From Pseudobdellovibrionaceae bacterium (GTDB lineage Bacteria; Bdellovibrionota; Bdellovibrionia; Bdellovibrionales; Bdellovibrionaceae): a DNA stretch of 22,251 bases. The notes below the pieces were generated by a model, which was not told where the DNA came from, did not search any database, and saw only the letters and a program-made list of their open reading frames with translations. Position 1 is the first letter of the stretch; the number at the start of each line of letters is the position of its first letter. The position numbers were made by a program, and so were the translations under genes. Location: contig JBIKLL010000041.1 in assembly GCA_044359815.1 (NCBI GenBank), positions 1 through 22,251 on the forward strand, read 5' to 3'. Shown here in pieces: positions 4,964-15,098 of the stretch.

Positions 4964-6043
4964 ATGAAATACCCACCCGTTGAATATTCAAACTATTTGC
5001 AACTGCAAAATATTTTAAAAAGCCAGTCTCTCAGAAGCGAAGAATTTAAAAAATCCAGCCACGATGAAATGCTGTTTATTATCACCCATCAGACCTATGA
5101 ATTGTGGTTTAAACAGATTTTGTTTGAACTGGATTCTATCATGGAAATTTTTAAACTGAACAGCATCCCTGAAAAAGAAATGGGTCTGGTGGTTTCCAGA
5201 CTGGAACGCGTGGTGCAGATCCAGAAATTTATTAACGGACAGATCGATGTGCTGGAAACCATGACGGCGCTGGATTTTTTAGACTTTCGTGAATTTCTGT
5301 ATCCCGCCAGCGGCTTTCAGAGCTTTCAGTGGCGCTTGATTGAAACTAAATTAGGCCTTCGCAACGAAGACCGGTTGCTGTTTAATGATTCCCCGTTTTA
5401 CAAAGCCCTCAGACCCGAGGATCAAAAACAAATGATGACAGTGTTAAACGAACCCAGTTTGTTTGATCTGTTGGATAAATGGCTTGCCAGAACCCCGTAT
5501 TTAAATTTTAAATCATTTTCGTTTTGGGAAAATTATCAAAAAGTGGTTAAAGAATTTTTTGATCAAGAAATCAAAACCATCGAGGCAATAAGCCATTTGT
5601 CACCGTCTGAAAAATCCAGGACTGTGGCTCAAGTCAAAGCTTCGTTTGATCAGTTTCATTCACTGTTTGACGAAGCGCAATTTACAAAACTGCAGGAACA
5701 GGGCTATTTCAGAATGAGCTCTAAGGCCATACAGGCCGCATTGTTTGTGCAATTGTACCGCGATCAACCAGTGTTTCAGATGCCCTTCAGATTATTGCAG
5801 GGATTAATGAATCTGGATGAACACATGACGACTTGGCGCGACCGTCACGCGCTGATGGCGCACAGAATGATTGGCAAAAAGATCGGGACCTCGGGTTCAA
5901 CAGGACATGATTATTTAAAAGCTACCAGTCAAAAACATAAGGTGTTTCTAGATCTGTTTAACTTAACAACTTTCTTTATACCTAAAAGCTTATTGCCTGA
6001 AATCCCTAGCGAATTGCTAGTTAAAATGAACTTTGTCCAATAG
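4964..6043 (+). CDS. kynA: Tryptophan 2,3-dioxygenase
   Basis: Motifs YSNYLQL, HDEMLFIITHQTYELWFKQI, FLDFREFLYPASGFQSFQWR, WRDRHALMAHRMIGKKIGTSGS. Confidence 0.95.
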   Translation: MKYPPVEYSNYLQLQNILKSQSLRSEEFKKSSHDEMLFIITHQTYELWFKQILFELDSIMEIFKLNSIPEKEMGLVVSRLERVVQIQKFINGQIDVLETMTALDFLDFREFLYPASGFQSFQWRLIETKLGLRNEDRLLFNDSPFYKALRPEDQKQMMTVLNEPSLFDLLDKWLARTPYLNFKSFSFWENYQKVVKEFFDQEIKTIEAISHLSPSEKSRTVAQVKASFDQFHSLFDEAQFTKLQEQGYFRMSSKAIQAALFVQLYRDQPVFQMPFRLLQGLMNLDEHMTTWRDRHALMAHRMIGKKIGTSGSTGHDYLKATSQKHKVFLDLFNLTTFFIPKSLLPEIPSELLVKMNFVQ

Positions 6044-10109: not shown

Positions 10110-10994
10110 ATGATGACGGTCGAACGAGTTTTATTAAACCAGGCAATGATTGCTTTGTTAATAATGGTTTGCAATGTATCAAGCGCGTATTTTTCACCGC
10201 TGGATGACATCAGAAATTCAGTCTCGGACCAAATCAAAGATTACTATGTAATCGAAGAATCAAAAATAATTTCAGACGAATCAAATGGTCAATTTCAAGA
10301 TCCTTACTCAATGCTGACTTTGCAAGACCAACAACCCGCAGCTTCTGCAGTTGATTTGTTAAACTGGAAGTATGTTTCACGATCATTTTCGCAACCTGAA
10401 GAACATTACAATCGTAAAAAACATTTTGGTGGCTGGGTTAGCGATCCCAACGACAATTCTTGCTTTAACACCAGGGCTCAGGTTCTGGAAAGGGATTCTC
10501 AGACACCTGTGCAAACCAGTCCCACCAATCGTTGTTTGGTTGCAAAGGGTTCTTGGGAAGATCCCTATACTGGTGAAATCATCACCGAAGCCAGTGACAT
10601 ACAAATTGACCATGTGGTTCCGTTGAAACAGGCTTACATTACGGGTGGATTTGGTTGGAACAAACAAAAGCGTTGTCTGTATGGCAATTTCACTAAAACC
10701 AAATATCATTTGCTGTCGGTCAAGGGTCACGAAAACATGAAAAAATCCGACAAGACCCCTGCTGAATATTTGCCACCAAATAGTTCCTATGTTTGTGAAT
10801 ACATTCACAACTGGTTAAAAATCAAATTAGCATGGCGATTGGTATTGGGCTCTGAAGAAGGTCAAGCCATCAATAAGATCTTGAAAGACTATGACTGCAA
10901 TCCACGACAGATCAAAATTTCAGAGCGCGAATTGGCCACAGTCAGAGCTGCCGAAGACTCTTCTGGGATCTGCGGCGACAGCGATCAAAACTGA
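10110..10994 (+). CDS. Secreted HNH-family (DUF1524-type) endonuclease
   Basis: Motifs HFGGW, CFNTRAQVLERD, GSWEDPYTG, IDHVVPL, ENMKKSDKTPAEYLPP; hydrophobic N-terminus; AGGAGG at 10103-10108 (start may be 10113). Confidence 0.85.
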   Translation: MMTVERVLLNQAMIALLIMVCNVSSAYFSPLDDIRNSVSDQIKDYYVIEESKIISDESNGQFQDPYSMLTLQDQQPAASAVDLLNWKYVSRSFSQPEEHYNRKKHFGGWVSDPNDNSCFNTRAQVLERDSQTPVQTSPTNRCLVAKGSWEDPYTGEIITEASDIQIDHVVPLKQAYITGGFGWNKQKRCLYGNFTKTKYHLLSVKGHENMKKSDKTPAEYLPPNSSYVCEYIHNWLKIKLAWRLVLGSEEGQAINKILKDYDCNPRQIKISERELATVRAAEDSSGICGDSDQN

Positions 10995-13277: not shown

Positions 13278-13361
13278 GTTTCGTAAACGCTGTGTTAAGG
13301 TCTCGAATATCTTGAAAATTTATTGGGTCTAGTGTTTTTTAGGGATTCTTTAATCAAAAGT

Positions 13362-13453
13362 GCCTCGGTGGCGAAATTGGTAGACGCACAGGACTTAAAA
13401 TCCTGGGCTTCGGTTAAACGGGCGTGCCAGTTCAAGTCTGGCCCGAGGCACCA
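13362..13453 (+). tRNA. tRNA-Leu(TAA)
   Basis: Acceptor GCCTCGG/CCGAGGC-A-CCA; D-arm GCG..TGGTAGA.CGC; anticodon arm CAGGA-CTTAAAA-TCCTG; long variable arm; T-arm GCCAG-TTCAAGT-CTGGC. Confidence 0.97.
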
Positions 13454-13608
13454 TTTTTGTTCTAGATAATTTATAAAAATACCTCTTCAAAAACTCAGAC
13501 ATGCGGTGCTCGGCGTGAGTCACGCCTGTCGAAGTGCCACTGGCACTTCGAACTGAACTCGTTTTTGAAAAGATATTTTTATAAATTATCTAGAATAAAA
13601 ATGGTGCC
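13447..13608. repeat. Inverted repeat, 48-bp arms (45/48) including the tRNA GGCACCA end, around a 66-bp GC-rich hairpin core
   Basis: 13447-13494 pairs with 13561-13608. The core contains GGCGTGA-G-TCACGCC (13512-13526) and TCGAAGTGCCA-C-TGGCACTTCGA (13529-13551). Confidence 0.95.
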
Positions 13609-13647
13609 CTGTGGTCCTGGCGCAGACCTGGCCAGCCACTGCTTTCT

Positions 13648-13749
13648 GTGCCAGTTCACAAAAAAAGCACGACGCTTTTTTTGCACGAACGTCAGTTCGC
13701 CCGAAGGGTGATGGGTAGGAACCCATCATCACACTGGCCCGAGGCACCA
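13648..13749 (+). repeat. Duplicated tRNA-Leu T-arm/3' end interrupted in the T-loop by a 75-nt palindromic insert
   Basis: GTGCCAGTTCA (13648-13658) equals tRNA 13424-13434; CTGGCCCGAGGCACCA (13734-13749) equals tRNA 13438-13453. Confidence 0.92.
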
Positions 13750-13778
13750 AAAATAAAAAGTAGTAAAATCTGGCAGCT

Positions 13779-15098
13779 TCAGCTCTTAAAGCCCTTTGCT
13801 TTATTTTTCGAATAATTCGACATTTTTTCCCAGTAACCTGAAATATCCAATTTGACCTCTAAACTTTTAAGGACTGAATAAACTCCTCCAAGCTTTCTGT
13901 GCAGAAATGCCAAACCATAGGGCGGTGGACTGAAAACCAGTAGTTCTGCCAAGTCTTTAGCAGCGTTGGCAGAATTGATGGCATGTTGAGGGTCAGAAAA
14001 ATCAAATTTTTGCTGTCCTGCCTTAGCCGTAAAAAATGGTTTAGTGGCAGTGGCTAAAACCTGCTGAAAAGCAAAAAAAGCTTCTTTTGATTCGCGCTTG
14101 TCCAAAAGTCCAAACTGGATAGCATGTTCCTTGAGTGCCTCTGAATCCCCATTGGCAGAAAGATGCAAAAGCAAAATATAATCGCGAATAAAATCTTGCG
14201 AATACCGGCGGGTAGCTCCAAAATCCAGTAATATTAATTCCAGTTTATCACCGATATCGCGCACCAAAAAATTAGCCCAGTTTGGATCGGTTTGAACCAG
14301 TCCCCAGTCGAAAAATTCATGAAAATACAAATCCAATATGGCATGAGCCATAGCATCGCGCTTTACTTGGCTGGGATTTGAACCTATCCAAGTTTTTAGC
14401 GTAGAGCCCTGTTCAAAAGTCATTGCCAGAACATGGGCGGTCGACAGCTCGTCAATCACTCTGGGAACATGAAAGTGAAATCCTGTGTCGGATCGAATCT
14501 TTTCAATGCGAGCCGAGTATTCAGTTTGAAGTTTAGCTTCGCTGAGATAATCGACTTCCTGACTCAGAACATTTCGAAATTCTTGAAACAAAGGGTCCAA
14601 ATTCATTTTTCGCCCTGTCATTTGGCAAAAAGACGAAGCTAAGATTTTTAGAATTTTCAAATCAGAATCGATAGAGTCCGCAACACCGGGATATTGAACT
14701 TTCAAAACAATGTCTTGATCGTTGTAACGCGCACGATGCACCTGACCGATGCTGGCGATGCCGATCGGAGAATTAGAAATTTCACTGAGCTTTTTAAAAT
14801 TCGAAGCGCCAAGTTGCTTTTTAACTATGCCTTGCATTTGGTCAAATGGCTGTGCTGTCGCCTGGTTTTGCAACTGACTCAAAATCTGAATGGCCTCGGG
14901 CGGAAAGTAATTATTCAAATCCAAACTCAAAAGCTGACCCGCCTTCATGGCCGCACCTTTTAATCGTGAAAGGCTGTTGGCAATTAATACGGCTTGTTCG
15001 ATTCGAGATTTCAAATCTCCGGATCGAAATTCCCTAATACCTACGCGGGCGGCAAGCCTTGCCAGTTCAATGGATCTGCCAAAAATTGATGATTTCAC
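13779..15098 (-). CDS. ABC1/AarF/UbiB-family atypical kinase (COQ8-like)
   Basis: Motifs LKGAAMKAGQLLS, ASIGQVHRA, LKVQYPG, QTDPNWANF, LLDFG; GGAGGTGG RBS before the GTG start. Confidence 0.92.
   Translation of the reverse strand: MKSSIFGRSIELARLAARVGIREFRSGDLKSRIEQAVLIANSLSRLKGAAMKAGQLLSLDLNNYFPPEAIQILSQLQNQATAQPFDQMQGIVKKQLGASNFKKLSEISNSPIGIASIGQVHRARYNDQDIVLKVQYPGVADSIDSDLKILKILASSFCQMTGRKMNLDPLFQEFRNVLSQEVDYLSEAKLQTEYSARIEKIRSDTGFHFHVPRVIDELSTAHVLAMTFEQGSTLKTWIGSNPSQVKRDAMAHAILDLYFHEFFDWGLVQTDPNWANFLVRDIGDKLELILLDFGATRRYSQDFIRDYILLLHLSANGDSEALKEHAIQFGLLDKRESKEAFFAFQQVLATATKPFFTAKAGQQKFDFSDPQHAINSANAAKDLAELLVFSPPPYGLAFLHRKLGGVYSVLKSLEVKLDISGYWEKMSNYSKNKAKGFKS

Follow-up and report, generated by a model that had tools for sequence, protein, structure and literature searches.

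We analysed a contig of 22,251 nucleotides (nt) from a Pseudobdellovibrionaceae bacterium (JBIKLL010000041.1, assembly GCA_044359815.1), the whole of which we call the window, with attention to a second, split copy of the 3' end of its tRNA-Leu(UAA) gene. This copy and the sequence leading into it (13602-13749) are treated below as a candidate RtT-type tRNA-trailer unit, after the RtT repeats of Escherichia coli. The T-arm and acceptor end of the intact tRNA gene recur as two exact direct repeats in a repeat search, GTGCCAGTTCA (11 nt) and CTGGCCCGAGGCACCA (16 nt), beginning 194 nt behind the end of the tRNA. The three T-loop bases that lie between them in the tRNA, AGT (13435-13437), are swapped in the copy for a module of 75 nt (Table 1). 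The first-pass annotation, a model's reading of the letters, had described both the recurrence and the replacement, and both were confirmed. By simple arithmetic, a 16-nt exact repeat within 500 nt has a chance expectation of about 3e-5, and the same plan recurs behind other tRNAs, so that chance is ruled out. The tail of tRNA-Leu does have a second, split copy here, and this feature is real and non-random.

Table 1. Features of the tRNA-Leu locus in the window (MFE, minimum free energy; R1, covariance model described in the text).
Feature	Position	Strand	Basis
tRNA-Leu(UAA), intact, CCA encoded	13362-13453	+	ARAGORN; Rfam tRNA, 58.6 bits
Palindromic element, 162 nt; arms 13447-13494 and 13561-13608 (94% complementary), asymmetric core 13495-13560	13447-13608		repeat search
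Closing helix, 5' strand, antisense to the tRNA 3' end	13602-13616	+	MFE fold; counterpart of the outer helix in the Rfam RtT consensus structure
Predicted hairpin CUGGCGCAGA / UCUGUGCCAG, including the copied T-stem 5' strand	13617-13654	+	MFE fold, prediction only
Copy of T-stem 5' strand and T-loop TTCA, exact (source: tRNA 13424-13434)	13648-13658	+	repeat search
75-nt module	13659-13733	+	R1 match, 59.9 bits over 13649-13738; 71-copy family alignment
Copy of T-stem 3' strand, acceptor 3' strand and CCA, exact (source: tRNA 13438-13453)	13734-13749	+	repeat search

The module opens with hairpin H1 (13659-13683), which reads CAAAAAAAGC-acgac-GCTTTTTTTG and has a perfect 10-bp stem (13659-13668/13674-13683). 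It continues with a hairpin at 13686-13699, the motif CCCGAAGGG at 13700-13708, and TGA with hairpin H3, loop AGGA, at 13709-13728. The first-pass annotation had counted four hairpins. Three of them form in the predicted fold or the repeat search; the fourth, CCC-gaa-GGG, is there in sequence but stays unformed in the MFE fold. Folded as RNA, positions 13600-13760 reach an MFE of -70.5 kcal/mol (z = -6.1), and none of 200 shuffled sequences was as stable. Among the hairpins of the MFE fold are the one at 13686-13699 and one of 10 bp spanning 13707-13730, which is the 8-bp stem of 13709-13728 with two outer pairs added. The domain as a whole is closed in this fold by UGGUGCC (13602-13608), paired to the copied GGCACCA (13743-13749); further pairs join 13610-13616 to 13736-13741.

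We built a covariance model, R1, from eight modules, all of them Bdellovibrio-like copies and none from E. coli. In the assembly of this genome (G000; 91% complete, with C numbers for its contigs), R1 finds 13 modules at E <= 2.3e-6. Ten of these lie behind ten different genes (Leu, Arg, three Ser, Val, Cys, Met, Glu and tmRNA), and each has T-arm and 3'-end sequence of its particular neighbour on its flanks, which is what the first-pass annotation had proposed to test in homologous inserts; the other three are not near an annotated tRNA. ARAGORN predicts 34 tRNA and tmRNA genes in G000, and for 13 of them the gene's own 3' end recurs exactly, over 14-25 nt, in the next 600 nt downstream; other module types stand behind tRNA-Ala, Leu(GAG), Arg(UCU) and Met. 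The 75-nt insert itself has no second copy in G000 by BLAST. The units follow a plan with two halves: (i) the tRNA, a terminator hairpin or palindromic element, and an inverted, degenerate copy of the tRNA 3' half that begins with TGG; and (ii) the T-stem 5' strand, TTCR(R), the multi-hairpin module, (A)ATC, the T-stem 3' strand, the acceptor strand and CCA.

Outside G000, 60 genomes from its family and order were searched with R1 (E <= 0.01), and 14 of them have matches, in 1-6 copies per genome. A scan for the exact pattern, with one genome per species, gave 61 loci, and 13 of these were judged by eye not to be modules. Five of the rejected loci come from metagenome-assembled genomes (MAGs) titled Saprospiraceae (L089, L096, L097, L122 and L143) and have a conserved coding stretch in common; the eight others look like chance. 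The remaining loci are nearly all from MAGs titled Bdellovibrionales, Bdellovibrionaceae, Pseudobdellovibrionaceae, Bacteriovoracaceae, Oligoflexia or Bdellovibrionota. After a further 7 duplicates and truncated loci were set aside, 41 were tested against R1 and all 41 match. A BLAST search of 40 relatives with a 307-nt query from the window gave nothing convincing. We also surveyed the flanks of 44 distinct loci with a tRNA or tmRNA at most 330 nt upstream: the right flank retains at least 15 nt of the upstream gene's own 3' end in 26 of them, and in 23 the inverted copy stands out at z > 3.

The first-pass annotation had looked to structural homologs with covariation as its test, and the family supplies both. 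In an alignment of 71 copies, which was fitted to R1 and so favours the pairing test, 95.1% of helix cells are paired, compared with 80.2% in shuffles. Compensatory changes occur in 14 of the 16 helix pairs, none of 500 shuffles reaches the observed value, and no slid register comes close. The junction is fixed throughout, with TTCR(R) as left flank and (A)ATC as right flank. The pentamer TCACA, which stands at both junctions in the window as first reported, had been likened to a target-site duplication. That likeness does not generalise, as most copies have TTCGA/CAAAA on the left and GAGAC/AATC on the right; the window module ends in TCACA instead of GAGAC-AAT.

Copies behind like tRNAs tend to be related. 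Of 33 nearest-neighbour pairs with both tRNA types known, 19 join copies from the same type of tRNA (23% at random) and 10 join copies from one genome (5% at random). Mean identity is 47% among G000 copies and 48% among all copies. The family is therefore old. Within one genome, the modules behind tRNA-Arg and tRNA-Ser are 82% alike. The family has tRNA-specific lineages, with occasional moves between tRNA types, of which this Arg/Ser pair is an example.

RtT (RtT RNA, or rttR, and the 178-nt repeats of the tyrT operon; Rfam RF00391) has been catalogued in E. coli for decades. RF00391 occurs at 15 places in E. coli K-12, all in tRNA operons, and copies are found in the proK, lys/val, serX and arg/ser operons as well. 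At tyrV, the 19-nt 3' end of tRNA-Tyr recurs three times with a spacing of 178 nt. Each repeat consists of a 10-nt inverted piece of the tRNA end, GGTTCGA, an insert with CCCGAAGGG-CGA-hairpin-GAGT, AATCC and the 3' end. At proK, lysV and serX, we find the tRNA, a terminator, an inverted degenerate copy, GGTTCGA, the module, (A)ATCC with the tRNA's own 3' end, and the terminator again; unlike these three, tyrV has no terminator behind it. Modules at all four loci carry CCCG(A/C)AGGG-CGA-hairpin-GAGT(C), and the consensus structure in Rfam has the same outer helix, an antisense stretch paired with the 3' copy.

The window unit shares this architecture. It lies behind a tRNA on the tRNA strand, begins antisense to the tRNA 3' end, and in the MFE fold pairs this 5' stretch with the 3' copy as an outer helix. 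It also carries an exact copy of its own tRNA's 3' end including CCA (16 nt plus the 11-nt piece, compared with 19 nt at tyrT/V), and its T-loop is split after TTCR(A) by an insert with CCCGAAGGG, YGA and a hairpin (TTCA and TGA in the window). More broadly, units in the two groups are alike in placing a structured insert between GGTTCGA and (A)ATCC plus the 3' end and CCA of the neighbouring tRNA, in the motifs CCCGAAGGG, YGA, short hairpin and GAGT(C), in the terminator repeated after the unit, and in the possibility of tandem units. A motif that the first-pass annotation had placed beside tRNA genes of other bacteria, GTTC.ACAAA...TTTG...GCCCGAAGGG.GA, does occur there. R1 matches the three serX units over their full length and in register (22.5-23.9 bits, E about 1e-5) and ranks the four tyrT/V units as the top four of their locus at only 8.5-10.9 bits; at proK and lysV it gives no full-length match.

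The same plan thus stands behind many tRNA and tmRNA genes in G000, across Bdellovibrio-like genomes and in E. coli. We read 13602-13749 as a tRNA-trailer unit of RtT type, which would be divergently related to the E. coli repeats or would at least match them closely in structure, and put the probability of this reading at about 0.6. The unit probably behaves as an RtT unit does and is likely to be a distant relative; measured against the gathering score that Rfam sets for RF00391, 45 bits, it is not a member. As it matches a kind of repeat that is already catalogued, an outcome that the first-pass annotation had named as a refutation, it is not a new class. The RtT kind itself was known, though poorly understood; what is new here is a divergent RtT-type branch that is abundant in Bdellovibrio-like bacteria.

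Several observations weigh against this assignment. RF00391 has no match in 13300-13850 at E <= 10, its best score over the whole genome is 18.7 bits at a place other than the unit, and it has no match in any of 18 Bdellovibrio-like loci, compared with four matches of 133-137 bits at the control locus L159. On E. coli units R1 reaches low scores, 8.5-23.9 bits, which come partly from the common T-loop flanks. At 18 of the 44 surveyed loci an intact module is followed by a 3'-end copy that has decayed or been cut, so the CCA end is not always kept. The helices hold 12 G-U as against 9 A-C in 1033 cells, that is, wobble is rare and shows no strand bias, and such scarcity fits hairpins acting at the DNA level equally well as, or better than, RNA under selection. 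Most other loci have a strong terminator hairpin between tRNA and unit, which argues against simple read-through. Finally, the locus was found in DNA contigs only, and six RNA runs contain about 6-7% of the sampled words. The Bdellovibrio-like units further differ from those of E. coli in belonging to another phylum, in a first hairpin that is an A/T-rich CAAAAA...TTTTTG stem with an ANGAK loop, in their number (13 copies per genome here, one of them behind tmRNA), and in being known here from DNA alone. Among other Rfam families, none except tRNA reaches its gathering score in the window; STnc240 and isrK overlap the insert only at chance level (E <= 10).

The unit may act as an RNA. A simple scan found no terminator-like or promoter-like site between tRNA-Leu and the unit, and for this reason we propose that it would be transcribed by read-through from the tRNA-Leu promoter. 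Its antisense 5' strand could then pair with the 3' copy into a helix resembling an acceptor and T-stem and ending in CCA, so that tRNA-maturation enzymes might excise it as a stable small RNA. By analogy with E. coli RtT, we give this sequence of read-through, CCA-ended helix and excision somewhat less than even odds. Passages of Rossi et al. (2016, PMC4986893) describe RtT RNA as liberated from tRNA operon transcripts and report Northern signals in Actinobacillus pleuropneumoniae. Parts of that paper, of Skippington and Ragan (2012, PMC3318445) and of a 2024 preprint tie RtT RNA to the stringent response, with its mode of action given as unknown. The first-pass annotation had offered two interpretations, an element that targets T-loops or a processed tRNA-like RNA; they are supported in part, in that the RNA version agrees with the reports on E. 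coli RtT.

At the DNA level, the units would have arisen and spread by an event at T-loop position 57/58 that left the tRNA intact and duplicated its 3' end. The outcome resembles a direct-inverted-direct triplication whose turning points would be the terminator hairpin and the palindromic TTCGAA of the T-loop. The direct-inverted-direct order, the terminator repeat behind some units and the tandem arrays fit either an integrating cassette that brings a replacement 3' end or snap-back replication (tandem inversion duplication).

We therefore considered whether the units are selfish, gene-less DNA cassettes with no RNA role, which would integrate at position 57/58 of tRNA and tmRNA genes. Such a cassette would bring a replacement 3' end together with a terminator and an inverted copy, and the displaced original 3' end would remain fused to the module. 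Repeated events would give tandem units, and the module hairpins would be sites for a recombinase or HUH enzyme acting in trans. This is compatible with RtT-type units and does not exclude them. The fixed junction of the 71 aligned copies is what such a cassette should leave. So are a direct repeat that extends through the terminator (G000:C76, 63 nt; L040; L042; E. coli proK, lysV and serX) and tandem units at L158, at G000:C33 and in E. coli serX and tyrT. The patchy occurrence among relatives (1-6 copies in the 14 positive genomes, compared with 13 in G000), the likeness of the Arg and Ser modules, the loop AGGA common to H1 and H3, the few wobble pairs, and flanks that decay around intact modules point the same way. 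Yet no enzyme in G000 could be linked to this route or to snap-back replication: its two PF00589 genes (312 and 324 aa, on contigs other than that of the window) are Xer-sized tyrosine recombinases, RVT_1 is absent, and the only others counted are one rve and nine Y1_Tnp-like open reading frames (ORFs). Copies within G000 are as dissimilar as copies across genomes, so there was no recent burst. The only integrase that adjoins a unit, at L153, is part of an ordinary island with its own att repeat. Overall, we regard a purely selfish cassette as rather unlikely.

Two further checks proposed by the first-pass annotation, for a co-occurring HUH enzyme and for empty alleles, yielded nothing. The association between enzymes and modules across the 60 relatives was examined for one family, of 206-aa HUH-like proteins, which occurs in 7 of the 14 module-positive relatives as against 33 of all 60 and is thus not associated with the module. 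By synteny, the ABC1-kinase gene that adjoins the unit is not beside a tRNA in the loci of five relatives, and behind tRNA-Leu(UAA) in five relatives lies unrelated DNA with no unit, so the borders of the insert cannot be set by comparison. In four other lake metagenomes the locus is covered with 0 differences, and their contigs, from which rare variants would escape, show neither a joint nor an empty allele; for a mobile cassette this identity is unfavourable too. As an observation apart, G000 has eight paralogous ORFs, each about 206 aa long and weakly similar to Y1_Tnp (HUH) (C23:201-821, C48:48177-48797, C56:2969-3616, C47:11964-12584, C49:93331-93951, and one each on C100, C125 and C8), mostly preceded by short tandem repeats that differ from copy to copy. 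In the 33 relatives that carry it, this family is multi-copy, with up to 24 copies, and is not tied to tRNA units.

Repetitive extragenic palindromic (REP) sequences and REPINs with their RAYT enzymes, and the PATE derivatives of IS200/IS605, are gene-less elements built of hairpins. The units here are likewise gene-less, with hairpins of conserved loop and a fixed short motif 5' of the element; they differ in being bound to tRNA 3' ends, which they copy, in their strong divergence, and in having no link to the Y1-like genes tested. A module of this kind, moved by an IS200/IS605-type Y1 enzyme, might have inserted 3' of TTCR into the loop of a pre-existing long hairpin, which snap-back replication of the tRNA 3' end at a terminator would have made. 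In favour of this, behind tRNA-Asn on C4, the tRNA is followed by a palindrome and an inverted copy with no module or third copy. TTCGAA is a perfect palindrome, palindromic cores seem to occupy hairpin loops, and the genome has one RAYT-like gene besides the eight HUH-like paralogues. Nevertheless, all 13 G000 genes with a direct 3'-end copy also carry some type of module, which two independent events would not be expected to give. The insert is unique by BLAST, the copies are far from near-identical at 47%, and the HUH-like family is not associated with them, so we hold this route improbable. The module does not resemble a miniature inverted-repeat transposable element either: its ends are not inverted repeats, and the duplicated flank, always a tRNA 3' end, is 8-63 nt long and not of fixed length. 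The RAYT-like Y1 transposase gene is single (211 aa, G000:C8:9768-10106, minus strand) and lies between inverted copies of a 25-nt REP-like sequence.

Elements that tyrosine integrases insert into tRNA and tmRNA genes, by a crossover at the 3' end or within the T-loop, were reportedly described by Williams in 2002. Like the units described here, they leave the tRNA intact, duplicate its 3' end downstream, also target tmRNA and can form tandem arrays. The window unit could accordingly be what is left of a decayed island or prophage, its attL and attR sites flanking a tRNA-Leu insertion that was later followed by an unrelated one. Direct repeats of a tRNA 3' end are the hallmark of such islands, and in other genomes these tRNAs do harbour genuine islands, which carry toxin-antitoxin or defence genes or an integrase. 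We disfavour this explanation and consider it very improbable. An att repeat would be contiguous and bracket an integrase or cargo, whereas here 75 nt interrupt the repeat, and across 71 copies a conserved module does so at one fixed T-loop position. Only 194 nt, with no ORF of at least 80 aa, separate tRNA-Leu from the copy; the units carry neither integrase nor cargo; they include an inverted copy; and the same module serves many different tRNAs. Where islands are present, they are placed in front of the unit, behind the tRNA, with a short att repeat of their own (12 nt at L157), which makes them later, separate events.

At L157 (G062:C91), L158 (G063:C619), L151/L152 (G061:C30) and L153 (G064:C351), small islands of this sort separate a tRNA-Ser or Glu-like gene from its RtT-like unit. 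Their cargo is RelBE-like genes, DarT/macro genes, a HigA-like gene with a GNAT gene, or a 406-aa integrase. The island at L157, which was examined over its whole length, has its own 12-nt att repeat, and short 3'-end remnants lie at the same place in L151/L152 and L153. In Caldiarchaeum subterraneum, as reported by Sugahara et al. (2012, PMC3293823), a tRNA gene was disrupted by a mobile element. In that account a tRNA fragment likewise lies beside an intact gene after integration; it differs from the present units in that the element is 1.8 kb long with a recombinase gene, the fragment is a 5' one, and archaeal introns are involved. A literature search for such units in Bdellovibrio, or for miniature elements that target T-loops, found nothing relevant.

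Returning to the RtT-type reading, its significance is that the RtT plan occurs in a distant phylum in many copies, each bearing the 3' end of the tRNA or tmRNA that it belongs to, and with the module at one exact T-loop position. This provides a comparative handle on RtT. The invariant parts are TTCR, the first hairpin with its ANGAK loop, CCCGAAGGG-YGA, the AGGA hairpin and GAGAC-AATC; the rest of the unit merely follows the neighbouring tRNA. For annotation, it is a warning that split 3'-end copies of this kind are not integrase att scars, and that the Rfam RtT model misses this branch. A wider proposal, which we advance as doubtful speculation, is that RtT-type units form one ancient class of 'tRNA-programmed' cassettes across Pseudomonadota and Bdellovibrionota. 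They would have spread by a DNA mechanism at T-loop position 57/58 that copies the tRNA 3' half first inverted and then direct, leaves the tRNA restored every time, and produces a tRNA-mimic RNA whose T-loop is expanded. This would amount to a new way of inserting or duplicating DNA site-specifically, directed at the universal TTCRA loop, whether or not an enzyme of its own is involved.

Palindromic elements adjoin the units in several places. The outermost 7 nt of the arms of the 162-nt palindrome in the window are the tRNA-Leu 3' end GGCACCA and its reverse complement TGGTGCC, and the arms as a whole resemble inverted copies of the flank. Its core has one other copy in the genome (G000:C4:63183-63247, 88% identity over 66 nt, opposite orientation), directly behind tRNA-Asn and followed by the reverse complement of that tRNA's own 3' end. 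The window element and G000:C4:63137-63300 thus form a pair, at tRNA-Leu and tRNA-Asn, with a conserved asymmetric core. A second palindromic family in G000, with variable complementary arms and a conserved core, gives seven BLAST matches (C84:38556-38672, C33:47064-47180, C58:8332-8390, C107:26408-26476, C30:4881-4916 and 5162-5205, and C75:116-193). All seven adjoin tRNA units or tRNA 3'-end copies and are followed by TGG and an inverted tRNA end.

On C58 (G000:C58:500-10000), three partial copies of tRNA-Met type, from the anticodon loop to the 3' end, each have a hairpin module of their own. They are spaced by 7.6 kb, with zinc-uptake genes (CobW, ZnuABC-like and Fur-family), and by 1.3 kb, so that the array, in which there is no recombinase gene, resembles a gene segment bracketed by tRNA copies. 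In the window, the ORFs neighbouring the tRNA-Leu locus are ordinary (HSP20, ABC1 kinase and 2OG oxygenase), and an ORF at 10110-10994 (+), 2.4 kb upstream of tRNA-Leu, has a weak match to GmrSD_C (type IV restriction).

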